NCBI GenBank assembly: GCA_044346905.1
Contig: JBIIYH010000001.1
Span: 1-46,322, forward strand
Origin: Pirellulales bacterium
Lineage (GTDB): Bacteria; Planctomycetota; Planctomycetia; Pirellulales; UBA1268
DNA: 46,322 nucleotides
Direction of reading: 5' to 3'
The translations under genes and the position numbers were made by a program. The stretch's first letter is position 1. Each line of letters opens with the position of its first letter. Shown piece after piece: positions 17,862-35,415 of the stretch. The notes below the pieces were generated by a model. It saw only the letters and a list, made by a program, of their open reading frames with translations, was not told the DNA's origin and did no database searches.

Positions 17862-18803
17862 TTGACGGTCATTCCGGGTGGACCTAGTGTCGAGGGCTCG
17901 GCCGGCCCACGCACGGCCACTCGCGCCCGCCCGAGCCGCCCGTCCGTGACAGCCCCCACCCAGATCGCCGCAGATTCCGCGCCGCCGGCTGGCGGGCACG
18001 TGCGTCAGGAGCGGCGGCAGCCTGCGGAGACCGCCTGGGGAGACTGGTGGGCCGGCACGCGGCACGCCGATCTCTGGGGCACGCTGGCCTGGTACGACAT
18101 CGTGCTCCGGTATCGTCGCTCGCTCTTGGGCCCCTGGTGGATCACGCTGAGCATGGGGGCGATGCTCCTGGGGATGGGGCCGCTTTATGCGGCGCTGTTC
18201 GGCGTGCCATTGGCCCGGTTTTATCCGCACCTGGCGCTCGGGATCATTTTCTGGAACCTGCTCAGCACCTCGATCAACGATGGCTGCCAGGTGTTCATCA
18301 CGGCCGCGGCGTACCTCAAGCAGGGAGCCGTGCCCCGCAGCGTGTTCGTCTGGCGGAGCCTGGCCCGGCAGTTGTTCTTTCTCGCCCATCATCTGGTGCT
18401 CTACCTGCCGGTGGCCATCTGGGCCGGCCTGACCTGGAGCCCGCAGATGCTGCTGGTGTTTCCGGGCCTGCTGGTCGTGATCATCAATCTTCATGCCCTC
18501 TCGATCACGCTCGGCCTGCTCTCGGCCCGGTTTCGCGACGTGCCCAACATCGTCGCCAGCAGCCTCCAGCTGCTGATGTTTCTGACGCCCGTGTTCTGGT
18601 TTCCGGAGAAGCTGCCGGAGCGATCGCGATTCATCCTCTATAACCCGCTGGCCCAACTGCTCGACGTCTTGCGGCTGCCGTTGCTCGGCGGCTCGCCGGC
18701 GCCCGGGACCATCCGCTTTCTGTTGTACTTCACCGTGCTGAACGTCGCCGTGGCGGCCCTGCTCTACGCCCGACTCCGCCGCCAGGTCGCGTACTGGGTG
18801 TGA
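17862..18803 (+). CDS. wzm: ABC-2 type polysaccharide exporter permease (Wzm/KpsM/TagG-like); true start probably internal
   Basis: Contains DIVLRYRRSLLGPWW followed by six hydrophobic segments. The maximal ORF starts only 20 nt from the divergent GT2 start, so an in-frame GTG at 17946 or 18000 (267 aa) is more realistic. Confidence 0.85.
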   Translation: MTVIPGGPSVEGSAGPRTATRARPSRPSVTAPTQIAADSAPPAGGHVRQERRQPAETAWGDWWAGTRHADLWGTLAWYDIVLRYRRSLLGPWWITLSMGAMLLGMGPLYAALFGVPLARFYPHLALGIIFWNLLSTSINDGCQVFITAAAYLKQGAVPRSVFVWRSLARQLFFLAHHLVLYLPVAIWAGLTWSPQMLLVFPGLLVVIINLHALSITLGLLSARFRDVPNIVASSLQLLMFLTPVFWFPEKLPERSRFILYNPLAQLLDVLRLPLLGGSPAPGTIRFLLYFTVLNVAVAALLYARLRRQVAYWV

Positions 18804-18807
18804 CCCG

Positions 18808-19548
18808 ATGGCCCTGATCACCCTCGACGACGTGGCGGTGGAGTACCCGGTGTTCGGGGCCGACGGGGAGTCGCTGAAGAAAACCCTGACCGCGGCGGCC
18901 ACGGGGGGACGGATCGGCCGCGGCACCGGGATCACCGTCGTCGAGGCCCTCCGCGACATCTCGTTCGAGCTTCGCGACGGCGCCCGGCTCGGGCTGGTGG
19001 GCCACAACGGTTCCGGCAAATCGACGCTCCTGCAGACGCTCGCCGGCGTCTACCCGCCGACCCGGGGCCGGTATTTCCACGAGGGCTCGATCGCCAGCCT
19101 CGTCAATCCGATGCTCGGGATCGAGCGGGAGGCGACGGGCTACGAAAACATCATGATCCGCGGCCTCGTGCTCGGGCTCAACCGCCGCACGATCCGGGGC
19201 CTCACCCCCGAGATCGCCGAGTTCAGCGGGCTGGGCGACTACCTCCACATGCCGGTGCACACCTACTCGACCGGGATGCTGATGCGGCTGGCGTTCGCGA
19301 TCACGACCAGCGTGCGGGCCGACATCCTCCTGATGGACGAGTGGCTCTCCGTCGGCGATGCGGAGTTCCGCCTGCGGGCCGAGGAGCGGATCCGGGAGCT
19401 CGTGGCGCAGAGCGGGATCCTGGTGATCGCCTCCCACTCGGCGGAGTTGATCGCCCGGGAGTGCAATCGCGTGATCGAGCTTTCCCACGGGGCGATCGTG
19501 CGGGACGAGCCGCGCGTGAGCCAAGCGGCGGTTACCTCAGCGGAGTGA
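18808..19548 (+). CDS. wzt: polysaccharide ABC exporter ATP-binding protein (Wzt/KpsT/TagH-like), short form
   Basis: 246 aa. Walker A GHNGSGKST, signature YSTGMLMRL, Walker B ILLMDE. Ends right after the NBD, with no C-terminal carbohydrate-binding extension. Confidence 0.9.
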   Translation: MALITLDDVAVEYPVFGADGESLKKTLTAAATGGRIGRGTGITVVEALRDISFELRDGARLGLVGHNGSGKSTLLQTLAGVYPPTRGRYFHEGSIASLVNPMLGIEREATGYENIMIRGLVLGLNRRTIRGLTPEIAEFSGLGDYLHMPVHTYSTGMLMRLAFAITTSVRADILLMDEWLSVGDAEFRLRAEERIRELVAQSGILVIASHSAELIARECNRVIELSHGAIVRDEPRVSQAAVTSAE

Positions 19549-21039
19549 CCGGCGCCGGCCTGCCGCGGCCGCCTGGATCCGGCCGGTCATGTCCTGTCGC
19601 AGCGACTCGTGGATCCTCCGTTCCGCTTCGAGTTGGGCGGCGAGATCGTCGCGTTCACCCGCCAGCAGATCGGCCTCTCGCTCGTGCCGCTCGGCCAGCG
19701 ACCTGGCCTCGGCGACAGCCGACTCGAGCTGTCGGATGGTCGCCTGGAGTCGTCCGATGGTCGCGTCGCGGTCGGCCGCGGCGTCTTCGAGCCGGCCGCG
19801 GGTCGACTCCGCCGCGGTCAGTCTCCGGCGGGCCTCGGCTTGTTCCCGCTCGTGCCCGGCCCGTGTCTCCGTCGCCTCGGCCTGCATCCGGCTCAGGGCC
19901 GCCGTCGCCTCGGCTGCCTGGGTTGCCAGGGCCTCGCAGCGGGTCGCCAGGCCGCCGTGGGCCGCGTGCAGACGGTCGATTTGCCGCTCCAGTTCCAGAC
20001 AGCGGTCTTCGGCGGCCGTGCGGCCACGCGCTTGTTCGTTGCGGTCGGCTTGGAGCCACGCCAGGTCGGCGGCGAGCGTCGCGGCCCGCGAGAGCGCCTC
20101 AGCCCGCACGGACTGTTCACCGAGGAGCGCCCGCTCGGCCCGCTCGGCCGCCTGGCGGGCGCTGGCCTCGCGGGCGGCGGCGGCGGCCTGGTCCGCCACC
20201 GCACGGCAGCCCGCAGCCCACTCGGCGAGCCCGGCTGCTGCGATCGCCGCCGGCGGCAGCACCCCGCCCGGGAGAGCCGGATCGTCGCCCCCGCCCAGCC
20301 GGAGCAGTTCCCGGTACAGCTCGCAGGCCTCCGGCCGCACCGCCTGCACCAGCCCTGCCCGCCGGGCAGGCGGTCCCCGCCGGAGCCGCCCGGGCTCGTA
20401 ACGCGGCCCGGGCGTGCCCAGAGCCGTGTCCAAAAGGGTCGCTACGTCGGCCACCAGGCCGACCGGATCGGTGACGACTCGCGAGAGATTCACGACGAGC
20501 GACCGCCGCGGCTCGCGCCGAACGAAGTCGAGGATCCGGCTGTGGTAGGCCACCCACACGTCCACGGCATGCCGCGGATCGAAACCGATCGCGGGATCAC
20601 CGCACCGAAAGAGCGAGTCCACGACCTCCTCAGGCGGCCGCACCACGAACAGCCAGCGGGCCTCGGGGACGAGAGTCGCCCAAAAGTCGAGGAACAGGGT
20701 CGTGCGGGGATCCTTCCAGCCCCAGGGCTGGCCGGCGTGCCGGCGGCAGCGGACCAGTTCGGCGGCCTGTTGTCGTGCCGAGACCGGAATCTCGATCGTT
20801 TCCCGGCAGGTAAAACCCTCGCCCGCCAGGCCGTTGGCCGCCAACACCTGCCGGTGCAGGGTCTGGAACTCGGGGTCCTCGAACGGCCCGAGCGAATCAG
20901 GGCGGGCCGCCGGCACCGGGTCGGGGCCGAGGGACACGCCCCCCGCGGCCACGAGTGAAGCCGCCAGCGACATGCCCGAGCGGTGCATGCCCGCGATCAC
21001 GACGGCCGGCGGGAACTCCGGGACCAGCTGGCCTGCCAT
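19537..21039 (-). CDS. sulfotransferase-domain protein with ~200-aa C-terminal coiled coil
   Basis: 500 aa. 5'-PSB-like VIAGMHRSGMSL and 3'-PB-like VVRPPEEVVDSL, plus WGWKDPR. The C-terminal ~215 aa are Ala/Arg/Glu/Leu-rich and heptad-like. Paralogous to the N-terminus of the 28557-34742 ORF. Confidence 0.75.
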   Translation of the reverse strand: MAGQLVPEFPPAVVIAGMHRSGMSLAASLVAAGGVSLGPDPVPAARPDSLGPFEDPEFQTLHRQVLAANGLAGEGFTCRETIEIPVSARQQAAELVRCRRHAGQPWGWKDPRTTLFLDFWATLVPEARWLFVVRPPEEVVDSLFRCGDPAIGFDPRHAVDVWVAYHSRILDFVRREPRRSLVVNLSRVVTDPVGLVADVATLLDTALGTPGPRYEPGRLRRGPPARRAGLVQAVRPEACELYRELLRLGGGDDPALPGGVLPPAAIAAAGLAEWAAGCRAVADQAAAAAREASARQAAERAERALLGEQSVRAEALSRAATLAADLAWLQADRNEQARGRTAAEDRCLELERQIDRLHAAHGGLATRCEALATQAAEATAALSRMQAEATETRAGHEREQAEARRRLTAAESTRGRLEDAAADRDATIGRLQATIRQLESAVAEARSLAERHEREADLLAGERDDLAAQLEAERRIHESLRQDMTGRIQAAAAGRRRSLR

Positions 21040-21295: not shown

Positions 21296-23095
21296 ATGTC
21301 CGGCCCGTCCGAGTCTGACCTGCGGCCCTATTTCGACAGCCGCTGGTATGCCGCCACCTACGGGCCGGGCAGGCGGCGGGTCCGCTGGCGGCCCTGGCGG
21401 TATTACCGCCGCCGCGGCTGGCGAAAGGGGCATGCTCCCTGCCAGCTGTTCGATGCCGCCTGGTACCTCGCCAGCCATGCCGACGTGAGATCGGCGGGCC
21501 TCGAGCCACTGGCGCATTACGTCGAGCACGGCTGGCGGGAGGGTCGCCAGCCGCACCCGCTCTTCGATCCCTCGTGGTACGCCGACCGGTATCCCGACGT
21601 CGTGAGCAGCGGCCTCGAGCCGCTCCTGCACTATCTCACGGCGGGCTGCCGAGAGGGCCGGCAGCCCCATCCGGCCTTCGATGCAGCCAGCTACATCGCG
21701 GCGAATCCCGACGTGGCGGCAGCGGGCCTCGACCCCCTGGCCCATTACCTCGAGTACGGCTGGCGGGAGGGTCGCCGGCCGCACCCGCTCTTCGACATCG
21801 GCTGGTATCTCGACCGCAATCCCGACGTGGCGGTCGCGGGCCTCGAGCCGCTCTCACATTTTCTCAGTCGCGGCCGGGAGGAAGGCCGCGCAGCGGCTCC
21901 CGGCTTTTCGCCGGCCGGTTCACCTGCCGCTCGGCCGCAGCCACCCGCCACTGGCCCCGTCAATCGTGGCCAGGTGCGGGCGATCGCGATGTACCTGCCC
22001 CAGTTCCACCGGATCGCGGAGAACGACGCCTGGTGGGGCGAGGGTTTCACGGAGTGGACCAACGTCCGCCGGGCTCGGCCGATGTTCGCGGGCCACCAGC
22101 AGCCGCACGTGCCGCATCCCGACCTCGGCTACTACGACCTCGATGACGAGACCGTGCTCGAGCGGCAGGCCGAGATGGCCCGCCGCCACGGGATCCACGG
22201 GTTCTGCTTCTACCACTACTGGTTCGCCGGCCGGCGGATCCTCGAGAAGCCGGTCGAGCGGCTCTTGGCGAGCGGCCGGCCCGATATCCCCTTCTGCGTC
22301 TGCTGGGCCAATGAGAACTGGACGCGGTCCTGGGACGGGCTCGACCGCGAGGTGCTGCTCGAGCAGCGGCACTCGGCGGACGGCGACGAGCGGTTCCTGC
22401 GCGACCTCTTGCCGGCGGTGCGCGATCCCCGCTACATCACCGTCGAGGGCCGACCGCTCCTGATCGTCTACAGGCCGGGCCTGCTCGCCGAACCGGCGGC
22501 CACCGCGGAACGGTGGCGGCGGATCGCCGAGCGGGAGGGTCTGCCGGGGCTGCACCTGGCTGCCGTGCACGCCTTCGACCAGGCCGATCCGCGGAGCTAT
22601 GGCTTCGACGCGGCGATCCAGTTTCCGCCCCTGCAGATCCCCGCCGCCAACCTCCGCGACACGGGCCTCGGCGGGCTGGACCGCCGCTTCCGCGGGGGTG
22701 TGCTCGACTACCGCGAGGCGGTCTGCCACTCGCTCGCCCGGCCCGCGGCCGACTACCCGCTCTACCGCGGCGTGATGCCCGGCTGGGACAACACGCCCCG
22801 GCGGATGGAGCGGGCCACCGCCTGGGTCAACTCCTCGCCCGAGCTCTACGGCCGCTGGCTGCGGGGCGCGGTCGAGCAGATGCAGCGGGAGCAGCCCCCC
22901 GAGCGGCAGCTCGTGTTCATCAACGCCTGGAACGAGTGGGCCGAGGGGGCCCACCTCGAGCCCGACGTGCGGCACGGCTACCGGGTGCTGGAGGAGACGG
23001 CGGCGGCGCTCCTGCCGCGGGCCGCGGGGCGGCGGCCCGAGCCGGTGGCCGTGGAGTCGGGTGCCCAGGCGAGCCGGGGGCGCCAAGCGGCCTGA
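21296..23095 (+). CDS. five 38-aa tandem repeats fused to a WbsX-family (PF14307-like) glycan biosynthesis domain
   Basis: 599 aa from ATG 21296. Repeats follow FDxxWYxxxxPDVxxAGLEPLxHYxxxGxxEGRxPHP. The C-terminal part has YLPQFHRI.ENDAWWGEGFTEWTNV and CWANENWTR.WDG, hallmarks of WbsX. Confidence 0.85.
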   Translation: MSGPSESDLRPYFDSRWYAATYGPGRRRVRWRPWRYYRRRGWRKGHAPCQLFDAAWYLASHADVRSAGLEPLAHYVEHGWREGRQPHPLFDPSWYADRYPDVVSSGLEPLLHYLTAGCREGRQPHPAFDAASYIAANPDVAAAGLDPLAHYLEYGWREGRRPHPLFDIGWYLDRNPDVAVAGLEPLSHFLSRGREEGRAAAPGFSPAGSPAARPQPPATGPVNRGQVRAIAMYLPQFHRIAENDAWWGEGFTEWTNVRRARPMFAGHQQPHVPHPDLGYYDLDDETVLERQAEMARRHGIHGFCFYHYWFAGRRILEKPVERLLASGRPDIPFCVCWANENWTRSWDGLDREVLLEQRHSADGDERFLRDLLPAVRDPRYITVEGRPLLIVYRPGLLAEPAATAERWRRIAEREGLPGLHLAAVHAFDQADPRSYGFDAAIQFPPLQIPAANLRDTGLGGLDRRFRGGVLDYREAVCHSLARPAADYPLYRGVMPGWDNTPRRMERATAWVNSSPELYGRWLRGAVEQMQREQPPERQLVFINAWNEWAEGAHLEPDVRHGYRVLEETAAALLPRAAGRRPEPVAVESGAQASRGRQAA

Positions 23096-23122: not shown

Positions 23123-23836
23123 ATGGCCGTCCGCATCCATCAGATCTTCTACGCCGACGCCCAGCGCGGGCTTCTCGACCCGGCGTTCATTCCGTACGAC
23201 AACCGGGAAAACCCGCGGCCCGAGTGGCGGGAGTATCACGTGTTCCGCACGGAGTGGCTGGCCGGCCGCTGCGGCTCGGGCGACGTGACGGGCTTCGTCT
23301 CGTGGAAGTTCGGCGCCAAGACCGGTGTCGCCGGTCGGACGTTCAGGGAGTTCATCGAGCAGAATCCAGGCCACGACCTGTATTTCGTCCATCCGCACCG
23401 GGTCGAGCCGCGACCTTTCACCGGCCTCTGGCAGCAGGCCGAGGTCCACCACCCCGGGATCACCGGCCTGGCCCAGCGGATCCTGGATGCCGTCGGGGTC
23501 GCCGTCGATCTGGCAACGCTCGAACAGCCCCGGGAGCAGATCCTGTTCTGCAACTATTGGGCGGGCACGCGGAAGTTCTGGGACGAGTACATGGCCCTCT
23601 GCGAGCCGGTCCACCGCCACATCCTCGAGGGGCTTGGCCCCGCCGACCGGGAGTTTGCCTGGTCCCGGGCTGACCGGGAGATCGACGCCCCCTACGTGCC
23701 CTTCATCATGGAGCGGCTGTGCAGCACGCTGCTCGCCCTCCGACCGGAAATTCGCTTCCTCGGCCTGCCGGCCCCCGTCGGCCGCTCCGCCCGGCGGCCT
23801 TGGTGGCGCCGGATCATCTCGCGCCGGGCCGCCTGA
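23123..23836 (+). CDS. hypothetical protein (237 aa), glycan-locus associated
   Basis: Clean ORF 28 nt after the WbsX gene. MAVRIHQIFYAD...FIPYDN...YWAG. I recognise no family. The 3' end overlaps the convergent membrane gene by 23 nt. Confidence 0.6.
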   Translation: MAVRIHQIFYADAQRGLLDPAFIPYDNRENPRPEWREYHVFRTEWLAGRCGSGDVTGFVSWKFGAKTGVAGRTFREFIEQNPGHDLYFVHPHRVEPRPFTGLWQQAEVHHPGITGLAQRILDAVGVAVDLATLEQPREQILFCNYWAGTRKFWDEYMALCEPVHRHILEGLGPADREFAWSRADREIDAPYVPFIMERLCSTLLALRPEIRFLGLPAPVGRSARRPWWRRIISRRAA

Positions 23837-26084
23837 ACGTCTCCGGTCGGCGGCTCACGACGGGCAGCACGAGCGCGGCTGCCACCACGAGGGCCGAGAC
23901 GTCGATCGTCAGGGCATGCATGAGCGGGTGAATCAGCCACACGATGCCGAAATACAGGAGCTGTGCGGTGAGCAAGACCGTGAGGAGCCGGGGCGATCGC
24001 CGGGCCAGGCAGATGGCCCCGCCGATCGCCAGACCGAACCACGCGGCAGTCGGCAGATGGTGCAGCATCGGCGACGCAAGACAGACGAGCAAATAGGTCA
24101 CCAGACTGACGAGCGACAGCAGGATCAGGATCCGAGCGGCGGAATCCGCCGCCGGCGGTCTGTTTTGGACCAGGGCCAAGGCGGCCAGTGTGCAGACCGT
24201 CACCCAGACAGCGGCGTTTCCATACGTCGGCACATGGAAGTCCCAGGCTCGCAGGAGGCCCATCCTGAATGCGTCACGCCCGGTGACCCGCAGGGCCTGG
24301 GCGGGGGCCGATCGCAGGGGCATGATCGCATCGACGACCATCTCGCGCTTGAGCCACAGCCAGCCCGTCAGGGTCATGCCGGCGTAGCGTTCTCGGACGA
24401 GGTCGCCTACCGACAGCTCCGGGCGATCGAAGCCAAAAGATTCCGTCAGGGCGTATTTGGTGACGGGATCGTTGCTGGGAAGGAGGATTCGCTTGAATGC
24501 CGCCCAGCTGCCGAGGAGCAGGCTGGCAATCAGACAGCCCCCGAGCACCGGCCTCCAGGCTTGGCGGGTGAGCCCGGTCAAGAACAGGAGGGCCAGCGGA
24601 GCGAGAAAAAACGCCGTGCCGGCATGGGCCAAGAGGCTGAGGGCCGCCAGAGCCGCCACGCCGAGAATCCGAGCCGCTGATCCCGGCAGCCGCCGCCATT
24701 CGTCGATGACCAGGCCGAAGCAGGCCAGTGAGAGGGCCGCCCCAAAGGCCTTCGGCCAGCCGTACGACGTGGTGAAAAATGAGTAGGGGACCGTGGCTGC
24801 AAAACAGGTGATCAGCAACGCCTGTCGCTGCGGCAGATCGGGTGCGAGTTTGCGGACAATCCAGTAGGCAACTGGAATCCAGAGTGCGTTGAGCGCGATG
24901 CCGGCGGTGTTATAGAGCACCCCCGTCAGGTAGTTGCCGTCGTTGAACGCCTGTGATGCCGCGACGACATCGCCGATCAGGAGATAGGCGGCCGCCATCA
25001 GCGGCGGCCGGTCGGTCGGTCGCCACTGCCCGCCGAACAGCGTCGCGAGCGGATCACCGTGGCGAATGCCCTCCGCAAACCGCCACGGGAGTTCGTGATC
25101 AGTCGACCATGTCGCCGGCCAGAAGCGATAGTTCGGCTCCCAGTGCCCCGTGCCCGTGTTCGTCGCCCCGCTCACCGCCGCGATGAGCAGCGTGGTGAAG
25201 ACCCACACGGATCCATATGGCCGCAGCAGGCCCCAGGCCCGCTCCCGGGGTTGGCGACCCACCATCCACAGCGTTGCGGCCGCAGCCAGTCCGGCTGCAC
25301 CACAGGCCAGGCGCACCGCCGTGGCCGGGAGGATTCCCCAGATCTGGAGAGTGACCGAGAGATAGAAGACGGCCAAGGCGGTCACAGCCAGGAATACGAG
25401 GGCCAGCGGAAGCGCGAGATCCTCGCGGCCGGCACGGACTGCCACCCCGGCCCCGGTGGACAGCAGGAATCCCCAGATCGCCATCGCGGTGCACAGGACT
25501 GCCAGCCGGCCTGCAAAGCTGCCCTTCAGCCAAGCAAGCCAACTTGCGGCGAACACGCTGCCGGTTCCCGAGTTGCAGTCGCCGGTGCTCTGCAACCGCA
25601 GCCTGGTTTCGGAGCCGACCCACTGCGGAGGCACGGCCACGAGAACGTCGTTGAAACTGGAATGCGTGCTGCCGAAGTACACCGGCTTGCGTTGGCCGCT
25701 GGCGACATGCTCGAGCCAGATGGCGGCCGGACCGCCTGTCCCGCTCGAGCTCCCGGTGACCGGGATCGAGAGCACGGGCGGTGCCCGAAACGGAGGCGAC
25801 GTGAGGGCGAGCGGCAGGTCGCCACTGGACGGGGTCCACACCCGCCAGAATCTCGTGTCGGAGTTCAGCCGGACGGAGTCCCGCAGGAAATGGCCCGCAT
25901 GATGGAGGCCCCCGAGCATCACGCTCTGCTCGGGGTGCCCCTCGACGAACCAATCGGAGGCCGGAGTCAGAAGCCGCGCAGCCGGTTCCGGCCACAGCGC
26001 CACCGCCGCCGCCGCCAGCACGATCCCGGCCAGCCACCGTCCAGATTGCTCTCCGCAGGGACCGGCCATGCTCCCGGCCCCCAT
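23814..26084 (-). CDS. large polytopic membrane protein, GT-C-like (ArnT/PMT_2-type) glycosyltransferase candidate
   Basis: 756 aa. After an N-terminal ~190 aa with one hydrophobic segment come many hydrophobic segments. The loop motif TDRPPLMAAAYLL resembles the D-x-P-P-L loop of ArnT/PMT_2 enzymes. The CDS call is solid and the function is tentative. Confidence 0.6.
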   Translation of the reverse strand: MGAGSMAGPCGEQSGRWLAGIVLAAAAVALWPEPAARLLTPASDWFVEGHPEQSVMLGGLHHAGHFLRDSVRLNSDTRFWRVWTPSSGDLPLALTSPPFRAPPVLSIPVTGSSSGTGGPAAIWLEHVASGQRKPVYFGSTHSSFNDVLVAVPPQWVGSETRLRLQSTGDCNSGTGSVFAASWLAWLKGSFAGRLAVLCTAMAIWGFLLSTGAGVAVRAGREDLALPLALVFLAVTALAVFYLSVTLQIWGILPATAVRLACGAAGLAAAATLWMVGRQPRERAWGLLRPYGSVWVFTTLLIAAVSGATNTGTGHWEPNYRFWPATWSTDHELPWRFAEGIRHGDPLATLFGGQWRPTDRPPLMAAAYLLIGDVVAASQAFNDGNYLTGVLYNTAGIALNALWIPVAYWIVRKLAPDLPQRQALLITCFAATVPYSFFTTSYGWPKAFGAALSLACFGLVIDEWRRLPGSAARILGVAALAALSLLAHAGTAFFLAPLALLFLTGLTRQAWRPVLGGCLIASLLLGSWAAFKRILLPSNDPVTKYALTESFGFDRPELSVGDLVRERYAGMTLTGWLWLKREMVVDAIMPLRSAPAQALRVTGRDAFRMGLLRAWDFHVPTYGNAAVWVTVCTLAALALVQNRPPAADSAARILILLSLVSLVTYLLVCLASPMLHHLPTAAWFGLAIGGAICLARRSPRLLTVLLTAQLLYFGIVWLIHPLMHALTIDVSALVVAAALVLPVVSRRPETFRRPGAR

Positions 26085-28556: not shown

Positions 28557-31500
28557 TCAGCGGGTGGCGACGCGACGGGTGTCGGAGCCCCGGACGCGTC
28601 CTTCGGCTTTGCGCCGGCGGTCGACGACGATGACGTCGAGGTACGCCGCCACCATGCCCAGCGCCGGAATCTCCACCATGATCCGCCGGGCGTCGTCACC
28701 CGTGCAAGCACGGATTCGCTCGACGATGTCGTAGCCCCAGTCCCAGGTGACGAGCGACCCGTCGGCCGACATCGGATTGCCGTGAAACTCGGGGGGCTCG
28801 AGGTGCCGCACGCCCTCCGCTCCCCGCTCCGCCCGCTGGCGGGAGGCCGCCGCGCCCCGCACCAGGGGCGTGGTCAGCAGATGCGCTCCGCCGGGCCGCA
28901 GCGTTCGCTGCACCTCACGGAAGGCAGCCTCGGGGTCGAAGACATGCTCGAAGACATCCTGGGTGATCACGACGTCGAACGAGCCGGAGTCGAAGGTCTG
29001 CCGCTCGAGATCCTCGGACCGCCAGCGGCCCTGCGGCTCGAGCATGCCGAACGGGGTCGCCGGGTCGTACTGGGAGGGCACGTAGCCGGGGCACTCACGG
29101 GCGAGCTTGCCGCTCAGACCCCGCATCTCCGGCGACGACTCGTGGATCCGCAGCCGGCGCCAGTCGGGAAACCGGATCTGGAGCGCGAGCATCAGGGCCC
29201 GCTCCCGGGGCAAGGAATGACACCGCTCGCAGATGTAGTGGTCCCGGAGCCAGGCCTCGGTGGAGGAGAACGTCGTGGCCTGTTCGCAGATCGGGCACCA
29301 GCCCGCGTGTCGCAGCACGTAGCCGGGAGGGGCGGCCGGCACCGCGGCCGGTGACGGCGGCAGGGGAGCGGGCTTGGCGGGCCGCACGCCGTCGAGCACC
29401 AGCTGCACGAGGTCGGCAAGATCGCCATGTTGCCTGGCGATGATCTCGGCGTGGCGGGCGAGGAGCCGTTCCCGCGGGGGTGGCCCGTGCCAGGCCTGGA
29501 GGATCGCCCCCGCGATCGAGTCGATATCCCGCGGGTCGCAGAACACCGCCGCCTCGCCGCAGATTTCCGGGATCGCCGCCACGGCGGCCACCACCGCGGG
29601 CGTGCCATACCGCATCGCCTCCACCGGCGGGTAGCCGAAGCCCTCGTTGAACGACGCGTAGACGAGCATCCGGGCCCGCTCGAGCAGGTATTCGAGCTGC
29701 CCCGGCGACACCTCGGGAATCGCCGTGAACCGCTCGGGGTGGGCGAGCTCGCCGAGGCCAAGCTCGGCGAGCGACGAGATCCCGACGAACACCACCCGCA
29801 GGTCCGCCAGCCCGAAGGGATCCCCTGCGGCGGCGAACAGGCGGTCGAAGGCGGCTGCCACCGACGGGGCGTTTTTCTCCGGCCGGCCCGCGTGCAGCAC
29901 CAAGGCGAACGGGCGGCCGTCCGAGGCGATTCCGTGACCGCGGTAGGGCGTCGGCTCCGGTCGGTCCTTCTCGGCCGAAGCGAGCACGACGAACCGCCCG
30001 GCCGGCGGAGCGAACTCCGCCTCGATCACCTCCCGGCAATACCGCGAGACGGTCACGAGCGTGTCGACGTGGGGGTCGTGGCAGAGCGTGGAATACATCG
30101 CCGCCAGCGAAGCGGGATCGGGTGCGGAACTCGAGAGGAACGAGCCCGGGCCGGCCGCCTGGGGCCGCCAGCCGGCCCGCACGAGCGCCGCGGTGATCCC
30201 CTCGCGGTCGCGGATCAACTGCAGGTCGCGAATGTCGTGCAGCGTGCCGACGATCCGTGTCCGGCCACCCGTGAACGGCAGCCTGGTGCCGGCCCGCTGC
30301 ATGTACTCGTAGCCCGTGTAGACGACGATCGCCGGACAGAAGAAGGCGTCGAAGCGGCCTGAGTTCACCAGCTCGACGATATCGGCGTAGGACCGGACCG
30401 CGATCACGCGGATTGCCAGCCGCCGGCACTCGGCGAGCACCCAGGGATCGATGTGGAGCGCTGGGTCGAGTGCCGCCCAGACGACGACGTCGCCACGGGC
30501 GGCCGCGGCCCGGGCCAGGCCCCGGAACACCGCCTTGCCGTACTCGCCGCCGCCGTGGTATCCGGGCTGGCAGAAGAACAGGTCGACGAGCACGTGCCGC
30601 TTCGGCCCGGCCACGAGGGTGGGCAGCGACTCGCTGCGGCAGTCGAGCGGCGTGCCGCGGCAGGCGGCCGCGAAGTTGTCGAGTTCGCCGGCGGCCAGCC
30701 CGGCGGCCCGCGCCGCGTTCTCGTAGCCGAGCCGCATCTTGGTGGCGCTCGGCAGCGCGCCGGTGGAGACGCCCTCCTCGTGGAGGATCTTGAGCTCGGG
30801 CGAGTAGGCCAGGAAGTGGCCGGCGAGCAGGGCGTCGACGGCGAACAGGAACTCCTCACCGTAGAGCTTGGTGCGCTCGTCGAACAGGGTCGGCATGCCC
30901 CGGACGAAGACCGGCGAGAGGATGATCGCCGCACCCTGGAGGAGCGGATTGGCAAGGAATGCCGCCTCGGGCGACCGCCGTCCGAGCCGGCGGAACCGCG
31001 GCTGGCCGGTCCGCTCGAAGTCGGCCCGGTCCTCGTGGTACATCGCCTCGAGCCGCCGCCACTCGTCCGGGCCGTAGACCGTGTCGTTCCAGGGGTTCTC
31101 CCGGCGGCCATCGGGCGTGACGATGTCGGGCCCGAGGACGGAACAGGCGGTCTCTTGAAACAGCCGCTCGCAGCGGAGGATGAAGTCGGCCTGCTCGATC
31201 CGGGTGTCGTTGTTGATCACGGCGATGAAGGCGGCGCCGAGCCGGTCGCGGGCGTGGGCGTAGCCCGCGTTATTGCCGCCGGCGAAGCCCAGGTTGGCCC
31301 CCGTCTCCAGGAGCTCGACCGCGGGCATCGTGGCGATCGCCTCCCGGGTCGCCTCGACCACGTCGGCGGGCGAGCCGTTGTCGACCACCACGATCCGTAC
31401 CGGCCGGCGGCTCTCGAGCCGCACGAGCGATTCCAGGCACCGGGCCGTCACGTCGAACCGGCCGAACTGGAGCACGACGAAGCAGAACGGGGCGTCGGGA

Positions 31501-34500
31501 TCGTCTCCCCGGGCGACCGCCCAGGCGGTGGCCAGATCGCGGCGGTTGTCGAGCGGTGTCTCGACGCCTGCCGTTTCGGCCAGGACGCGGCCCGCCACGA
31601 GCCGCAGCCGGCCACCGGCCGAGGTCAACTGCCCGAGGAGGGCGGTATGGTCGGCGAGGAAGCCGGATCGCGCCCGGTCCGGTTCCCCGCCCGCGACCGC
31701 CGTGACCCGCGACCAGGCATGCTGTCGCAGTTCGGCCGGCTCTCGAGGCAGCGAATCGGCCGCCGCAGCGGGGCCCGCTGCGGCGACGGAGCGACGGGCC
31801 GGTGGGCGGACACCGAGCGCTGCGGCCGTCTCTTCGAGGTAGGCGTAGCCGTGCTGGATGTCGGGCTCGAGGTGGGCCCCCTCGGCCCATTCGTTCCAGG
31901 CGTTGACGAACACCAGCCGATGCTCGGGGGGCTGCTCGCGGACCGTGCGGTCGATGGTCGCCCGCAGCCAGGCGGCGTAGCGGGCCGGCGTCGAGCCGAT
32001 CCAGGAAGTGGCCCTTTCCAGCCGCCGGGCCGTGTTGTCCCAGGCCGGCATCAGGCCCCGGTACATGCGATATCCGGCCGCGGCTTCGGCCAGCGAGAAC
32101 GCCGTCGCCTCGGCGTAGTCGTGGATGCTGCCGGAGAACCCCGGGACCGCGGCCAGCCCGGGGTCTCTGGCCATGTTGCGGGCGGGGATTTGGAGCGGTG
32201 GAAACTGGATCGCCGCGTCGAATCCGAACCGGGCCGGGTCATCCTTGGAGAAGCTGCGGACCGCCACCAGGTGAATCTCGCCGATCCCTGCCCGACGGCA
32301 CTCCTCCCGCCAGGTGGCCGCCGCCCGCTTTGGATCGGCGAGCGACTCGGGGCGGTAGATGGCCAGGAGCGGTCGGCCGGCCACGCGGATGTATCGCGGG
32401 TCGCCCAGGAGCGGGATCACGTCCCGGATGAAGTCGCGGTCGGCCGCAGGCTCGTGCGACTGCGCCATCAGGATCTCGGTGTCGTGGCCGTCCCACGTCC
32501 GGGTCCAGTTCTCGTTGGCCCAGCAGATGCAGAAGGGGAACTTCGGCCGCCCCGAGCGGAGCATCTCGTCGAGCGGCTTCTCCAGGAGCCGCCGGCCCCC
32601 GAACCAGTAGTAATAGAAGCAGAAGCCGTGGATCCCGTGGGCTGCGGCCATCGCGGCCTGCCGTTCGAGCACGGCCGGGTCGGAGAGATCGTAATAGCCG
32701 ACGTCCGGGTGCGGCACGTGCGGCTGACCGTGGCCCGCGTACATCGGCCGACCGCGGCGGACGTTGGTCCACTCCGTGAAACCCTCGCCCCACCAGGCGT
32801 CGTTTTCCGGGATTCGGTGGAACTGGGGCAGATGCATGGCGATCAGCCGCACGCCCGCATCAGGCGTGACCATCGCGGGCCGCCGCGCCGCGGCCATCGG
32901 AGCCGGCGGGGCCATCGGGGCTGGCCGCTGCGCTGGCTGCTGGCCGCTCGTCAGGGCCGCGGGAGCCGGCGGGGCCGGCAGTCGGCCGGCCTGCCACTCG
33001 CGGTACGAGTCGCTCCAGCGGAACAGGGGCGCGAGCCTCGTGAACAGCCGGTGCCTCAGCCGCTGCTTGGCCGGGATCGAGAGCGGCAGCTTCCGCCACC
33101 AGCGGCGGCCCGTCGCCGAGATGGTGCGCCTCAGCCAGTCGGCCGGCCGGGAGACGGCCCGGCGGCGAATGGACCGCAGCGGCCTGGTGAGCTTCCAGGA
33201 TTTGCTGCCCTGAAGTTGGGCGAGCTCGTCGGCGAGCTCGTGCACGGCCTGTTCGCTGTCGCTGCCGCGGCGCTCGGCGGCAGACAGCCGCGAGCAGAGC
33301 TCCGCGACTTCGGCCTCCCGCTCGGAGCGGCCGCGGAGGGCCGCTGCCGCCGACTCCGCGGCCTGCCGCTGCACGGATTCCAGTCGCGATTCGAGGTCCC
33401 GGCTGTGTTCCGCGGCGGCCTGCAGGCCGCGCTCGAGCCGGGCCAAGTGGGCATCCCGCTCCGCGATGGCCGCACGGTGGTCGGCCAGTTGCCGCTCTCG
33501 CTCGGCCAGCGAGCGGTCGTGCTCGGCAAGCCGCTCGTGCAGTTCGGCCGCCTGCCCCTCGAGGTCGGCGATCCGCCCCTGCCGCGCGGCCAGTTCGTCC
33601 GCCAGATCGGCCGCCGCTGCATCCCGACCGGCGAGCTCCTGAGCCCGGCTGGCGATCTGCTCTTCAAGTCCGGCGATCCGGGACCGGTCCGCGGCGACAT
33701 CCTGGTCGCGTTCGAGGAGCCGGCCCCGGGTCGCTGCCAACTCCTGCTGCACGCCCTCGAGCCTGGCGGTGAGGGTCGCCGTCTGGGCCGCTTCCTCCTT
33801 GACCGCCTGCTCCCGACTCGCCTGGGACGCCGCCAGGTCGGCGGCCAGCCGTTCATTGGCCTGATCGGACTCGTCGACCGCTGACTCCAGCAACCGCGTC
33901 CGGGCCACGAGGCCACAGTTGCGGCTCCACTCCTCGAAACCGTGGACCGCGATCGCCTGACTCCCGGTCGCCAGCGGCTGCGGGACCGCCGCACCGGCCC
34001 TGGCAGCCAGCTCCGCATAGAGTTCGAGGGCTTCCGGGCAGGCGGCGGCCAGGAAGTCGCTCCGCGCGGCTTCGACGGTCGAGGAGAGCAGCTCCGGCTG
34101 ATAGCGATCCGGCGGCGGCTCGAGTGGCACCCGTAGGGTCCGCCGCACCGCCTGGAACACCTTGTCCGGCGCGGCGACGAGCTGCGACAGATCGCAGACG
34201 AGCGACCGCTCCGGGTGCCCGGCGGCAAAGTCGCGGATCAGGCGGTTGTAGTGCAGCCACACCTGGATCGCGAACGGCGGATTCGTGCGAAACGCCTCGT
34301 CGCCGCGGCGGTAGAGCGAGTCGACGACCTCCCAGGGCCGGCGGATCACGAACAGGAACCGCGCTTCGGGCAGCAGGTCGGCCCAGAACTCGAGGTGCAG
34401 GGTGGTGCGGGGATCCTTCCAGCCCCAAGGCATGTTCCGCTCGCGCCGCGCGGCCACGAGCTTCTCGGCTTCCTGACGGAGCCGGTCGGGCACCTGGGGC

Positions 34501-34742
34501 GTGGCCACCGTGACGAAGCCCTCCGGCATCAGCCCGTTGGTCCGGAGCACGAGCTGGTGCCACTCCACGAACTGGAGGTCCTCGAAGTGCCCCGCCTCGT
34601 TGCCCCGGTATGAGCCCAGCAGCTGGTCGCCCACTTGCAGGCCCGCTGCCTGGCAGAGCGACGCCAGGAGCGAGGTGCCCGAGCGGTGCATGCCCGCGAT
34701 CACGAGGGCCGGCGGGCGGTCCGTATTGGCTGGTCGGTTCAT
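28557..34742 (-). CDS. 2,061-aa multidomain glycan assembly protein: sulfotransferase, coiled coil, WbsX, GT2, GT4, Zn-ribbon/SAM methyltransferase
   Basis: Uninterrupted ORF. Start taken at ATG 34742 (MNRPANTDRPPALVIAGMHRSGTSLL), because the track start at 35183 overlaps rfbC.
- ~34085-34742: sulfotransferase (GMHRSGTS, IRRPWEVVDS).
- ~33210-33870: coiled coil of ~219 aa ending in SKSWKLTRPLR.
- ~31815-32850: WbsX (LPQFHRIPENDAWWGEGFTEWTNV, CWANENWTR).
- ~30770-31490: GT2 (VVVDNGS, LGFAGGNN, NNDT).
- ~29470-30600: GT4 (SFNEGFGYPPVEAMRYGTPAV).
- ~28600-29330: CxxC..CxxC ribbon plus methyltransferase (DVVITQDVFEHVFDP..L.PGG). Confidence 0.85.
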   Translation of the reverse strand: MNRPANTDRPPALVIAGMHRSGTSLLASLCQAAGLQVGDQLLGSYRGNEAGHFEDLQFVEWHQLVLRTNGLMPEGFVTVATPQVPDRLRQEAEKLVAARRERNMPWGWKDPRTTLHLEFWADLLPEARFLFVIRRPWEVVDSLYRRGDEAFRTNPPFAIQVWLHYNRLIRDFAAGHPERSLVCDLSQLVAAPDKVFQAVRRTLRVPLEPPPDRYQPELLSSTVEAARSDFLAAACPEALELYAELAARAGAAVPQPLATGSQAIAVHGFEEWSRNCGLVARTRLLESAVDESDQANERLAADLAASQASREQAVKEEAAQTATLTARLEGVQQELAATRGRLLERDQDVAADRSRIAGLEEQIASRAQELAGRDAAAADLADELAARQGRIADLEGQAAELHERLAEHDRSLAERERQLADHRAAIAERDAHLARLERGLQAAAEHSRDLESRLESVQRQAAESAAAALRGRSEREAEVAELCSRLSAAERRGSDSEQAVHELADELAQLQGSKSWKLTRPLRSIRRRAVSRPADWLRRTISATGRRWWRKLPLSIPAKQRLRHRLFTRLAPLFRWSDSYREWQAGRLPAPPAPAALTSGQQPAQRPAPMAPPAPMAAARRPAMVTPDAGVRLIAMHLPQFHRIPENDAWWGEGFTEWTNVRRGRPMYAGHGQPHVPHPDVGYYDLSDPAVLERQAAMAAAHGIHGFCFYYYWFGGRRLLEKPLDEMLRSGRPKFPFCICWANENWTRTWDGHDTEILMAQSHEPAADRDFIRDVIPLLGDPRYIRVAGRPLLAIYRPESLADPKRAAATWREECRRAGIGEIHLVAVRSFSKDDPARFGFDAAIQFPPLQIPARNMARDPGLAAVPGFSGSIHDYAEATAFSLAEAAAGYRMYRGLMPAWDNTARRLERATSWIGSTPARYAAWLRATIDRTVREQPPEHRLVFVNAWNEWAEGAHLEPDIQHGYAYLEETAAALGVRPPARRSVAAAGPAAAADSLPREPAELRQHAWSRVTAVAGGEPDRARSGFLADHTALLGQLTSAGGRLRLVAGRVLAETAGVETPLDNRRDLATAWAVARGDDPDAPFCFVVLQFGRFDVTARCLESLVRLESRRPVRIVVVDNGSPADVVEATREAIATMPAVELLETGANLGFAGGNNAGYAHARDRLGAAFIAVINNDTRIEQADFILRCERLFQETACSVLGPDIVTPDGRRENPWNDTVYGPDEWRRLEAMYHEDRADFERTGQPRFRRLGRRSPEAAFLANPLLQGAAIILSPVFVRGMPTLFDERTKLYGEEFLFAVDALLAGHFLAYSPELKILHEEGVSTGALPSATKMRLGYENAARAAGLAAGELDNFAAACRGTPLDCRSESLPTLVAGPKRHVLVDLFFCQPGYHGGGEYGKAVFRGLARAAAARGDVVVWAALDPALHIDPWVLAECRRLAIRVIAVRSYADIVELVNSGRFDAFFCPAIVVYTGYEYMQRAGTRLPFTGGRTRIVGTLHDIRDLQLIRDREGITAALVRAGWRPQAAGPGSFLSSSAPDPASLAAMYSTLCHDPHVDTLVTVSRYCREVIEAEFAPPAGRFVVLASAEKDRPEPTPYRGHGIASDGRPFALVLHAGRPEKNAPSVAAAFDRLFAAAGDPFGLADLRVVFVGISSLAELGLGELAHPERFTAIPEVSPGQLEYLLERARMLVYASFNEGFGYPPVEAMRYGTPAVVAAVAAIPEICGEAAVFCDPRDIDSIAGAILQAWHGPPPRERLLARHAEIIARQHGDLADLVQLVLDGVRPAKPAPLPPSPAAVPAAPPGYVLRHAGWCPICEQATTFSSTEAWLRDHYICERCHSLPRERALMLALQIRFPDWRRLRIHESSPEMRGLSGKLARECPGYVPSQYDPATPFGMLEPQGRWRSEDLERQTFDSGSFDVVITQDVFEHVFDPEAAFREVQRTLRPGGAHLLTTPLVRGAAASRQRAERGAEGVRHLEPPEFHGNPMSADGSLVTWDWGYDIVERIRACTGDDARRIMVEIPALGMVAAYLDVIVVDRRRKAEGRVRGSDTRRVATR

Positions 34743-34884
34743 GGCTCGCGGAATGGTTCCGGCCCGGCTGTGGCCGCCCCGGGGCTCGGCACCGGAGTCG
34801 CCGTCAAGCCTACCTTCAAAAACTGCCAGTGCCCGGCCCGCCGGGGCGGGTGAGCACCGCGGGAACCGGGACCGCCGGCCGGGG

Positions 34885-35415
34885 TCAGCCGACCAGGAGC
34901 GGGGCCGCGGCGTCCCGCGGGGAGAGCACGGGCGGGGCGGCCAGCGGCCACTGGATCGCCAGGGTCGGGTCGTCCCACCGGAGGCACTTTTCACAGCCCG
35001 GGGCGTAGAAGTCGGTGGTCTTGTAGAGGACGTCGGCCGATTCGGAGAGCACGAGAAATCCGTGAGCCAGACCCTCGGGCACCCAGAGTTGGCGGCGGTT
35101 TTCCGCCGAGAGCTCCACCCCCACCCAGTGGCCGAAGGTCGGGGAGCCGGGCCGGATGTCGGCGGCCACGTCGAAGATCGCACCGGCCAACGCGCGGACG
35201 AGTTTCCCCTGCGGATGAGGCTCCTGGTAATGCAGCCCGCGGAGCACGTGGCGACGGCTGGTGCTCTGGTTGTCCTGGACGAAGGCCACCTCCCACCCGA
35301 CCGCCGCGGCGAAGGCCCGGGCGTTGAAGCTCTCGAAGAACGAGCCGCGGTCGTCGGCGAACACCCGCGGCTCGAGCACGAGCACGCCGGGGATCTCGGT
35401 GGGCGTCACCTGCAT
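34885..35415 (-). CDS. rfbC: dTDP-4-dehydrorhamnose 3,5-epimerase
   Basis: 176 aa. Contains F.D.RG.F.E.F, LRGLHYQ, KLV and WVPEG.AHGF, the canonical RmlC cupin. Confidence 0.95.

Follow-up and report, generated by a model that had tools for sequence, protein, structure and literature searches.

Organization of the locus

Within the 46,322-nucleotide stretch of DNA analysed here (the window), a protein of 500 aa is encoded on the reverse strand, next to the genes of an ABC exporter (wzm and wzt) and a divergent gene of the WbsX family (Table 1). The ORF has a GC3 of 0.84, which is normal for coding frames of this window (70% G+C), and its start, MAGQLVPEFPPAVVIAGMHRSG, is kept in orthologs. 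The protein is composed of a head with a PAPS-sulfotransferase fold, a heptad helix of 236 aa and a conserved C-terminal motif. The convergent overlap with wzt, reported in an earlier note on this DNA, is indeed 12 nt (19537-19548), and an overlap of 4 or 12 nt is kept in relatives. The divergent orientation relative to the WbsX-repeat gene, described in the same note, is also correct: gene callers on near-identical contigs start that gene at 21296, with a product of 599 aa. Given this start, a 256-bp intergenic region separates it from the 500-aa ORF. A scan for promoter and terminator consensus sequences between 19300 and 21500 yielded nothing above chance, and no PAPS-synthesis gene was found within the window.

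Table 1. Position of the features discussed in the text
Feature	Position	Strand	Product, basis or remark
wzm	17862..18803	+	ABC-2 permease; Pfam ABC2_membrane; 267-285 aa on sister contigs
wzt	18808..19548	+	ABC exporter ATPase, 246 aa; Pfam match ABC_tran only
Stand-alone sulfotransferase-coiled-coil gene	19537..21039	-	ATG-started ORF, 500 aa
Coiled coil, aa 263-498	19546..20253	-	Single predicted helix, 236 aa, ~35 nm; AF2, true numbering
C-terminal motif GERDDLAAQLEAERRIHESLRQDMTGRIQAAA, aa 461-492	19564..19659	-	Family-specific, candidate docking site; family alignment
Sulfotransferase head, aa 1-250	20290..21039	-	AF2 alpha/beta fold, pLDDT mostly >90
3'-phosphate-binding motif FVVRPPEEVVDSL, aa 131-143	20611..20649	-	Intact; R134...S142
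Degenerate N..GHFED motif, DSLGPFED, aa 48-55	20875..20898	-	Comparison with alignment A2
5'-phosphosulfate-binding loop GMHRSGMSL, aa 17-25	20965..20991	-	M23 atypical
Divergent partner	21296..23095	+	599 aa; ~38-aa N-terminal repeats and WbsX (Pfam, aa 230-567)
Giant protein	28557..34742	-	2061 aa from M148; ST head, coil, WbsX, GT2, GT4, methyltransferase (Pfam)
Giant coil, aa 262-512	33207..33959	-	251 aa; AF2 helices 262-374 and 385-512

Regarding the exporter, the top NCBIfam match of the window Wzt is a galactan-export Wzt/RfbE model. No carbohydrate-binding module (CBM) was detected in its 246 aa by Pfam or NCBIfam, and the Wzt proteins of close relatives are likewise without one. Because the local Wzt has no CBM, cap-gated export is not evident at the window locus. 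Two ORFs considered as a detached CBM (orf473 and orf756) were rejected, as both are polytopic membrane proteins with no Pfam, NCBIfam or PDB sequence matches.

A giant ORF 7.5 kb from the 500-aa gene encodes the only multi-glycosyltransferase (multi-GT) polymerase-like protein of the window. Translation of this ORF most likely begins at M148 of the listed frame (nt 34742), which yields 2061 aa as on sister contigs, and a basic amphipathic segment (SWKLTRPLR...) follows the coil of the product. The earlier note had limited the paralogy between the two proteins to the N-terminal ~210 aa of the shorter one. The paralogy stands and is wider than that, with 40% identity over 463 aa (BLASTP, E=1e-66) in an alignment spanning the head, the linker and part of the coil. 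Two of the motifs said to be shared, VIAGMHRSG.SL and WGWKDPRTTL, are exact, but the third is only partial (VVRPPEEVVDSL vs VIRRPWEVVDSL in the giant). The relative L086 has the stand-alone protein, and the gene call for its giant-equivalent comprises 1438 aa without a sulfotransferase match. P0165, considered as a guide to the giant-type head organization in L086-like genomes, was discarded since it belongs to a different locus.

The sulfotransferase head

Pfam Sulfotransfer_3 (PF13469) matches aa 11-204 of the 500-aa protein with 29.4 bits (cutoff 27), and no kinase or methyltransferase Pfam match was found in it. A search of PDB sequences with this protein as single query gave no match. Foldseek, applied to the predicted head, retrieved TPST2 (3ap3), the CurM sulfotransferase (4gbm), Stf1 (2zq5) and heparan sulfate (HS) 3-OSTs with E values down to 5e-6 and a probability of 1.00 for the first three, at an identity to the solved structures of only 12-18%. 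A family-profile search matched the CurM sulfotransferase with E=6e-5 over a region that spans the 3'-phosphate motif. The fold search and the family profile were thus informative where the single-protein search gave nothing.

The residues H19-R20-S21-G22 of the phosphosulfate loop are present, and the 3'-phosphate motif FVVRPPEEVVDSL aligns to YLVRHPYSVIES of the CurM sulfotransferase; in an alignment of orthologs (A1), R134 does not vary and S142 is near-invariant. Overall, the core PAPS-site residues R20, S21, K109, R134 and S142 are kept, together with E54/D55. The protein shares with the TPST/CurM-ST/Stf/HS 3-OST class the fold, the 5'-phosphosulfate loop (HRSG) and the 3'-phosphate motif (R134...S142), and differs from that class by an additional 236-aa coil and by the lack of T23, N48 and H52.

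The coiled coil

The heptad coil proposed from the sequence was confirmed by its periodicity, by a check of the coiled-coil register and by the continuous helix of the AF2 model. The power of the 3.5-residue periodicity is 60 for the 500-aa protein, vs 9±9 in shuffles (p≈0.002), and 92 for the giant coil, vs 10±9 (p<0.0005). Unbroken heptad runs cover 110 and 84 aa in the former (aa 293-402 and 403-486) and 162 aa in the latter, whose AF2 model has a low-confidence break at 375-384. There is no proline in aa 264-500 of the 500-aa protein. A reading of this region as low-complexity or disordered sequence is ruled out by the periodicity and the model.

Regarding the lengths, the hand counts in the earlier note (215 and 219 aa) were too low. 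By the AF2 criterion the coils have 236 aa in the 500-aa protein and 251 aa in the giant, and are therefore similar, at about 6% apart, rather than matched. Their cores also differ, with 40% large hydrophobic residues and 31% Ala in the 500-aa protein vs 58% and 12% in the giant, and the heptad discontinuities sit at different positions. In a sister genome (MAG) the giant coil is 21 aa shorter and the stand-alone coil 7 aa longer; because these changes are opposite, the two lengths do not co-vary.

A family of stand-alone proteins and its genomic context

Sequence comparison places the 500-aa protein in a family of stand-alone sulfotransferase-coil proteins from Planctomycetota, with about 50 full-length ortholog clusters, among which no characterised member was found. 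Alignment A1, composed of 49 full-length orthologs, shows a conserved head and a conserved C-terminal motif, with a spacer of 155 to 267 aa between the conserved anchors. The difference in spacer length from the 500-aa protein is 0 mod 7 in 21 of the 49 orthologs and 3 mod 7 in 13.

The motif at the end of the coil, with the family form LVAQLEAERAIHE(A/S)LRQDMTGRIEAA, is present in the 500-aa protein, and its Q, E, R, E, R, D and R residues are invariant across the family. A search for it in 1.84 billion proteins recovered 18 matching representatives only. In those longer than ~300 aa the motif lies at the C-terminal end, and the five inspected are family members or fragments. With the 41-aa C-terminal motif as query, a word-index search was uninformative, yielding four tiny fragments only. 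No hydrophobic amphipathic or TM-like segment was found at the C-terminus of the 500-aa protein. A second lineage with a degenerate head (P0235/P0083) has also retained the motif.

The gene order is shared as well. In the relatives L081, L086, L087 and L089 the gene is divergent from a gene for a WbsX-GT2-GT4 protein of 1438-1447 aa, and the same order was identified in L001 by tblastn. Convergent wzt/wzm genes are found in L081-L087 and, by tblastn, in L001. The window keeps this arrangement, with a divergent WbsX-family GT gene and a convergent wzt.

Beyond these relatives, a Wzt of the Wzt_C type lies within 10 kb at 33 of the best 80 genome loci with the head. In cyanobacterial and Phycisphaerae relatives the head is encoded beside a Wzt with the Wzt_C carbohydrate-binding module. 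For instance, the order in Microcoleus (L080) is wzm, wzt (470 aa, Wzt_C E=3e-26), a methyltransferase gene and a gene for an ST-coil-GT2-GT2-GT4 protein of 1784 aa. Many clusters contain the sulfotransferase plus coil cassette fused with WbsX, GT2 or RmlD-like modules. Superfamily heads with little or no coil also exist, for example a 477-aa protein beside wzt in Phycisphaerae (L036) and forms of 345-430 aa. Since the L036 head lies beside a CBM-Wzt and is without a long coil, not all superfamily heads are rulers.

Atypical state of the copy in the window

Three replacements in the window head are unique among ~200 homologs: T23M in the phosphosulfate loop, N48D, and H52P within GHFED. HRSG is followed by T in 190 of 200 homologs and by M or L only in the window species' own 90% cluster, and D48 and P52 are likewise confined to that cluster. 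T23, N48, G51, H52, E54 and D55 are invariant in alignment A2, and H52 is replaced by Tyr in a few relatives. The window sequence DSLGPFED does not match the family motif N..GHFED. Sequencing error is ruled out as the origin of M23, D48 and P52, which recur in nine variant sequences from many samples. All three canonical residues are kept in the head of the giant, which is more likely than the stand-alone head to be the working sulfotransferase of the locus.

The divergence is not restricted to these positions. The 500-aa protein deviates at 19 conserved columns, vs a family median of 2. Between the window and L081, identity is 57% for the head, 85% for the partner and 88% for Wzt, vs 82%, 89% and 88% between L081 and L086; on these figures the window head has diverged much faster than the neighbouring genes. 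The 599-aa partner matches the first ~630 aa of the 1442-1447-aa partners with 77-78% identity and ends there. It has no GT2-GT4 modules, which every relative examined keeps, and no GT2/GT4 remnant was found near it.

Even so, by its variation the 500-aa gene is intact and under purifying selection. At least eight population variants, on dozens of contigs, all encode 500 aa with no frameshift or stop, and dN/dS is 0.22-0.43, near that of the neighbouring genes, as calculated from 8-10 nonsynonymous and 9-14 synonymous differences only.

Comparison with known chain terminators

WbdD of Escherichia coli O9a and Klebsiella pneumoniae O3 and O5 is a chain terminator of the stand-alone type whose coiled coil serves as molecular ruler (PMC11231755, PMC3482155). 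In the prototypes the terminator lies at the ruler's distal end and the polymerase is recruited by the C-terminal region (PMC11231755). The pairing with a carbohydrate-binding module on Wzt is the hallmark of capped-glycan systems (PMC9445017; PMC11231755).

The resemblance to WbdD put forward in the earlier note holds at the level of the family, which combines a modifying non-GT head, a long coil, a conserved C-terminal module, a Wzm/Wzt locus and a multi-GT neighbour. Like WbdD, these proteins are stand-alone and are encoded at a locus for a Wzm/Wzt-dependent glycan, with a separate multi-GT polymerase encoded alongside in the family; in the 500-aa protein the extended coil between the head and the putative docking end is the 236-aa helix. 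Unlike WbdD, to which there is no sequence homology, the head is of the PAPS-type sulfotransferase and not a kinase/methyltransferase, and the 500-aa protein is without the hydrophobic amphipathic C-terminal helix that serves WbdD as membrane anchor. For the window copy the resemblance weakens further: T23, N48 and H52 are replaced, the head diverges fast, Wzt has no C-terminal CBM, which recognises the cap in WbdD-type systems, and the truncated divergent partner (599 aa, WbsX only) leaves no adjoining multi-GT polymerase.

A second type of prototype unites the terminator, the coil and the polymerase GTs as a single polypeptide, as in WbbB of K. pneumoniae O12 and Raoultella terrigena and in the K. 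pneumoniae O4/O7 proteins (PMC11231755). This layout is shared by the giant ORF (ST-coil-WbsX-GT2-GT4-MT) and by the cyanobacterial ST-coil-GT2-GT2-GT4 proteins. The 500-aa protein, which has no GT module, would represent the split-off terminator and coil half of the same design. The putative cap is sulfate, vs beta-Kdo or methyl-phosphate in WbbB and the O4/O7 proteins.

In the open literature we found no paper describing a sulfotransferase-type chain terminator with a coil for O-antigens or other ABC-transporter-dependent glycans. Mann, Kimber & Whitfield (Glycobiology, 2019) reportedly foresee "new chemistries" in terminators, and sulfotransferases may already be among those that they list. 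As a separate observation, a paper on A. salmonicida contains an unexplained 216-aa ORF with a sulfotransferase domain beside wzt and wbbB.

Possible function of the stand-alone protein

By analogy with WbdD and WbbB, a role as terminator and ruler is plausible for the stand-alone family. The C-terminal motif would dock the protein on a membrane-associated polymerase complex, which would consist of the divergently encoded WbsX-GT2-GT4 protein and Wzm/Wzt. The coil of ~35 nm would then set a fixed distance between this polymerase and the head, a PAPS-dependent sulfotransferase. On growing long enough to meet the head, the undecaprenol-linked glycan would be sulfated at the non-reducing end and its extension would stop. 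This scheme follows the logic of WbdD with sulfate as the cap, and the giant ORF may be its fused, WbbB-like version.

The proposal that the 500-aa protein acts as a second terminator in the window locus is doubtful. The replaced residues of the head and the loss of GT2-GT4 from the partner suggest for the window copy, as the most likely state, weakened catalysis, a non-catalytic role as scaffold or regulator, or an altered acceptor. The copy has retained the coil and the putative docking motif and may have lost activity. We therefore favour, with a probability of about one half, a reading in which the 500-aa protein is a member of the sulfotransferase-coil family, the family works by the capping and ruler mechanism outlined above, and the window copy is a divergent, weakened or non-catalytic derivative.

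Because the PAPS-site residues and E54/D55 are kept, and H52 is Tyr in some relatives, the enzyme may still be active. A fully active second terminator and ruler, which would sulfate-cap a second glycan or the same one together with the WbsX protein at a modal length near that of the giant, would agree with the intact ORF and its purifying selection, with the core PAPS-binding residues, with the lengths of the two coils (236 and 251 aa) and with the family-level synteny with polymerase and exporter. We consider it rather unlikely, however, given the unique loss of T23, N48 and H52, the accelerated divergence of the head, a Wzt without CBM and coil lengths that fail to co-vary in the sister genome; moreover, with a partner reduced to one WbsX domain, no second multi-GT polymerase adjoins. 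The opposite possibility, that the gene is an evolutionary relic heading for loss with no function left, could account for the truncated partner, for the apparent loss of active-site-proximal invariants and for a head that is the fastest-evolving among close relatives. It is nevertheless very improbable for a gene free of frameshifts and stops in at least eight population variants on dozens of contigs, with a dN/dS like that of its neighbours and a well conserved C-terminal motif.

Sulfation by the family could also be internal and not terminal. Such a decorating enzyme would sulfate internal residues of the glycan, and its coil would only oligomerise and tether it to the assembly complex, as might be expected from the superfamily heads with little or no coil (L036, 477 aa; forms of 345-430 aa) and from the absence of CBM-Wzt in this clade. 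We regard this as quite unlikely, since a long coil with conserved ends, whose length often shifts by whole heptads, behaves as a spacer, the fused relatives place the head distal to the GT modules like WbbB-type terminators (PMC11231755), and cyanobacteria often have an adjoining CBM-Wzt. Hetero-oligomerisation of the stand-alone coil with the giant coil, by which a second, possibly regulatory, head would be added to the same machine, was another suggestion drawn from the coil lengths. The two coils do begin at aa 263 and 262 and are 15 aa apart in length, and the paralogy reaches into the coil; but the composition of the cores and the positions of the heptad breaks differ, the sister MAG shows opposite changes of length (giant -21, stand-alone +7), the stand-alone proteins form a family with a C-terminal motif and a divergent partner of their own, and the 1438-aa giant-equivalent of L086 is without a sulfotransferase match. 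This arrangement thus has very little likelihood.

A bolder version of the favoured reading, which is speculative and on balance unlikely, extends to both phyla: sulfate would cap ABC-transporter-dependent glycans in Planctomycetota and Cyanobacteria through a modular sulfotransferase-coil ruler cassette that can be fused to the polymerase or split from it, and the split copy in the window would be a non-catalytic "pseudo-terminator". Retained for its coil and docking motif, it would then adjust chain length or the assembly of the complex, for instance by competition with the WbsX protein for docking sites or by scaffolding of that protein.

Implications

Automatic labels such as "hypothetical protein", "chromosome segregation ATPase" and "sulfotransferase" obscure an apparently coherent family with its own C-terminal motif. 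At this locus the cassette occurs side by side in fused and in split form, and the head of the split form is naturally degenerate, so that a ruler or scaffold role could be tested separately from catalysis. Planctomycetota and Cyanobacteria are abundant in the environment, and sulfated polysaccharides are well known from them. Should the family act as proposed here, sulfation would join methyl, phosphomethyl and beta-Kdo among the known terminating chemistries of ABC-transporter-dependent glycans, and the coiled-coil ruler principle would reach these two phyla.

The stand-alone gene and its relation to the giant gene

The GC content of the window is 70%, and the reading-frame pattern of GC3 marks the stand-alone ORF as a real gene. 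A Pfam search placed Sulfotransfer_3 on residues 11-204 of its product (29.4 bits, cutoff 27). BLASTP aligned the protein with the giant ORF over 463 aa at 40% identity (E=1e-66), taking in the head, the linker and some of the coil, so that the paralogy suggested by the earlier note for the N-terminal ~210 aa holds and reaches well beyond them. Of the three motifs considered common to both proteins, VIAGMHRSG.SL and WGWKDPRTTL are indeed found in each, whereas the third differs, being VVRPPEEVVDSL in the stand-alone protein and VIRRPWEVVDSL in the giant. On sister contigs, the start of the giant is placed by gene callers at M148 of the listed 2,208-aa ORF (nt 34742), giving 2,061 aa; the gene call in a population variant (L084) is 2,044 aa.

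The expected gene arrangement was also confirmed: the coordinates give a 12-nt convergent overlap with wzt, and the WbsX-repeat partner, called at 599 aa in near-identical contigs, is divergent. The overlap, of 12 or 4 nt, is kept among relatives (loci L081-L087). Because the 3' ends overlap convergently, the two transcripts must overlap or collide.

Features of the glycan locus in the window
Feature	Position	Strand	Remarks
Wzy_C protein	12938-14896	-	O-antigen-ligase-like, C-terminal TPR repeats; edge of glycan cluster; synteny kept in relatives
wzt	18808-19548	+	Tail to tail with stand-alone gene
3'-end overlap	19537-19548		Stand-alone gene and wzt
Stand-alone gene	19537-21039	-	500 aa, sulfotransferase head and coil
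WbsX-repeat partner	21296-23095	+	
Partner repeats	21296-21900	+	Partner aa 1-200
756-aa protein	23814-26084	-	About 9 TM-like segments; syntenically conserved; 464 aa as called in variant L084
341-aa protein	26084-27109	-	N-terminal DUF4214, Methyltransf_24; adjoins giant gene; kept in relatives
473-aa protein	27106-28527	-	About 10 TM-like segments; syntenically conserved
Giant ORF	28557-35183	-	Sulfotransferase-coil-WbsX-GT2-GT4-methyltransferase
Segment after giant coil	33108-33200	-	Giant aa 515-545; basic, amphipathic
N-terminal extension of giant ORF	34743-35183	-	147 aa, Arg/Pro/Ser-rich

The coiled coils

The power at a period of 3.5 residues is 60 in the stand-alone protein against 9±9 in shuffles (p≈0.002), and 92 against 10±9 in the giant (p<0.0005). 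The longest heptad runs are 110 and 84 aa in the former and 162 aa in the latter. An AF2 model of the stand-alone protein, built from a 49-sequence alignment (mean pLDDT 80.5), has one helix of 236 aa, at residues 263-498; the giant has helices at 262-374 and 385-512, a 251-aa span with a low-confidence 10-residue break. Positions from alignment A1 and from the first AF2 model, both of which lacked Met1, were raised by 1 throughout. The family profile over this region also matches myosin rods. Heptad periodicity and the AF2 helix show that the target coil is a genuine coiled coil, as the register check proposed earlier had asked. The two coils are similar in length, as had been counted by hand, but unequal, and the counts of 215 and 219 aa were too low for both.

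The proposal of matched coils was compared with the sister MAG (GCA_046075145.1). There the giant W-to-SWK spacer measures 221 aa, compared with 242 aa in the window (-21, three heptads), and the stand-alone W-to-L spacer 198 aa, compared with 191 aa (+7), so that from one genome to the other the length difference between the two coils changes sign. In the stand-alone coil, large hydrophobic residues occupy 40% of core positions and Ala 31%, versus 58% and 12% in the giant, and heptad discontinuities are located differently. Length coupling or an in-register heteromer would thus appear to be neither supported nor, at n=2 genomes, refuted. Right after its coil the giant carries the segment SWKLTRPLRSIRRRAVSRPADWLRRTISATG, also kept in the sister MAG and lacking an equivalent in the stand-alone protein; it is likely a membrane-association element.

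The stand-alone family

Among 5.8 billion proteins searched, the family has about 50 clusters of full length (459-577 aa, 41-60% identical); those with names come from Planctomycetota MAGs. Conservation in the 49-sequence alignment covers the head, continues through the linker as far as E273-W274, and returns in a C-terminal motif (GERxDLVAQLEAERAIHEALRQDMTGRIEAA). Between W274 and L466 the spacer varies from 155 to 267 aa, and close relatives are 28 or 42 aa apart. Relative to the target, its length differs by 0 mod 7 in 21 of the 49 sequences and by 3 mod 7 in 13; owing to shared phylogeny these counts are not independent. By exhaustive HMM search, the C-terminal motif occurs in just 18 of 1.84 billion representatives; where the protein is longer than ~300 aa it occupies the C-terminus, and the five inspected are family members or fragments. 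This anatomy would suit a spacer between two functional ends.

Using Foldseek, the head was found to resemble TPST2 (3ap3, E=5e-6), as well as the CurM and Ols sulfotransferase domains, Stf1 and heparan-sulfate 3-OSTs. The family profile aligns FVVRPPEEVVDSL of the target with YLVRHPYSVIES of CurM. The target retains H19-R20-S21-G22, in sulfotransferases the 5'-phosphosulfate loop, and R134...S142, the 3'-phosphate motif.

Genomic context

The locus is an ABC-transporter-dependent glycan cluster with wzm/wzt, rmlA/rmlD, several GT2 genes, epimerases and a GDP-mannose-dehydratase-like gene. The Wzy_C protein suggests a ligation step that joins the product to a lipid or core acceptor. The 473-aa and 756-aa proteins have no match in Pfam, NCBIfam or PDB sequences; they could be membrane enzymes, of GT-C-like or another type, that modify glycans outside the cytoplasm. 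The 341-aa protein and the C-terminal methyltransferase of the giant are further candidates for a glycan-modifying or terminating activity.

Four related loci (L081, L086, L087 and L089) all have the stand-alone gene divergent from a WbsX-GT2-GT4 protein of 1,438-1,447 aa, and usually a wzt of 244-246 aa convergent with it; tblastn gave the same gene order in L001. The giant architecture is present in the window and the sister MAG (L070, L081), and a fused form occurs in L005; the counterpart of the giant in L086, 1,438 aa as called, has no sulfotransferase match. Since fused and split arrangements both occur among relatives, the sulfotransferase-coil cassette is modular, mirroring the description of the Klebsiella O4/O7/O12 coiled-coil proteins by Kelly et al. 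(PMC11231755).

Head-motif loci number at least 552 in GTDB species genomes, mostly in Planctomycetota, Cyanobacteria and Obscuribacterales. Among the best 80 of these, 43 have a Wzt ATPase within 10 kb, and 33 have within that distance a Wzt of the Wzt_C type, with a carbohydrate-binding module (CBM). Superfamily architectures include ST-coil-WbsX, ST-coil-GT2, GT2-ST-coil and RmlD-like-ST-coil (ST, sulfotransferase), and the fusions have proline-free helical stretches of 100-318 aa. Glycans that are capped and controlled by a ruler are recognised by a coiled-coil protein bearing a non-GT enzyme, accompanied by a CBM-Wzt (PMC11231755; PMC9445017). Cyanobacteria encode, in this order, wzm, a Wzt_C-type wzt and giant ST-coil-GT proteins; in a Microcoleus vaginatus locus (L080, 5981-15334) wzm is followed by wzt (470 aa, Wzt_C E=3e-26), a methyltransferase gene and an ST-coil-GT2-GT2-GT4 protein of 1,784 aa. 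This locus and 32 others look like the canonical signature with a sulfotransferase head.

The window copy is atypical

In a superfamily alignment of 32 sequences, excluding the target, T23, N48, G51, H52, E54 and D55 are invariant. Among ~200 homologs, HRSG is followed by T in 190, F/W-E-D is preceded by H in about 184 and by Y in 5, and N48 is kept in 177; M or L at 23, D at 48 and P at 52 are confined to the 90% cluster of the window copy, which has nine sequences. At conserved columns the target shows 19 deviations, the median for the family being 2, and the giant head retains T23, N48 and H52. Identity between the window and L081 is 57% for the head, 85% for the partner and 88% for Wzt; between L081 and L086 the values are 82%, 89% and 88%. 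By these identities the target head has evolved faster than its two neighbours.

The partner is reduced as well. It is 77-78% identical to the 1,440-aa proteins over its first ~630 aa and then ends in a clean truncation, common to all population variants, and no GT2/GT4 remnant was found beside it in the window. Every relative examined has the full WbsX-GT2-GT4 partner (~1,440 aa); this species lacks the methyltransferase genes that flank it there, and the window Wzt has no CBM. The partner begins with four to five tandem ~38-aa repeats without a Pfam match (FD..WY....PDV..AGL.PL.HY...G..EGR.PHPLFD), kept in the 1,440-aa partners, which could be a docking surface for the stand-alone C-terminal motif.

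At least 8 variants of the target gene, from dozens of contigs, have it intact. Its dN/dS is 0.22-0.43 against two variant groups, similar to the 0.08-0.33 of its neighbours, all from small counts, and the gene is still maintained. A second lineage with a degenerate head comprises P0235 (385 aa) and P0083 (407 aa), which have HRSGVS, no GHFED motif and a short coil; P0235 has its 3'-phosphate motif deleted and still ends in the family C-terminal motif.

Interpretation

The likeness to WbdD, a stand-alone terminator with a coiled-coil ruler, is plausible as a way of working for the family, but the target is not a member of the WbdD protein family because the catalytic domains differ. The reading we favour for the family is a split terminator-ruler like WbdD, in which sulfate is predicted to be the cap, and for the giant its fused form, like WbbB, in which terminator, coil and polymerase share one polypeptide. 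In the open papers searched we found no description of a sulfotransferase terminator; the 2019 Whitfield-lab census may have predicted one. In the window copy the coil and docking module are conserved, and the evidence suggests that the catalytic head they carry has shifted or weakened. This copy is judged somewhat likelier to act mainly as a structural or regulatory protein, or on an altered acceptor, than to be a second terminator with full activity.
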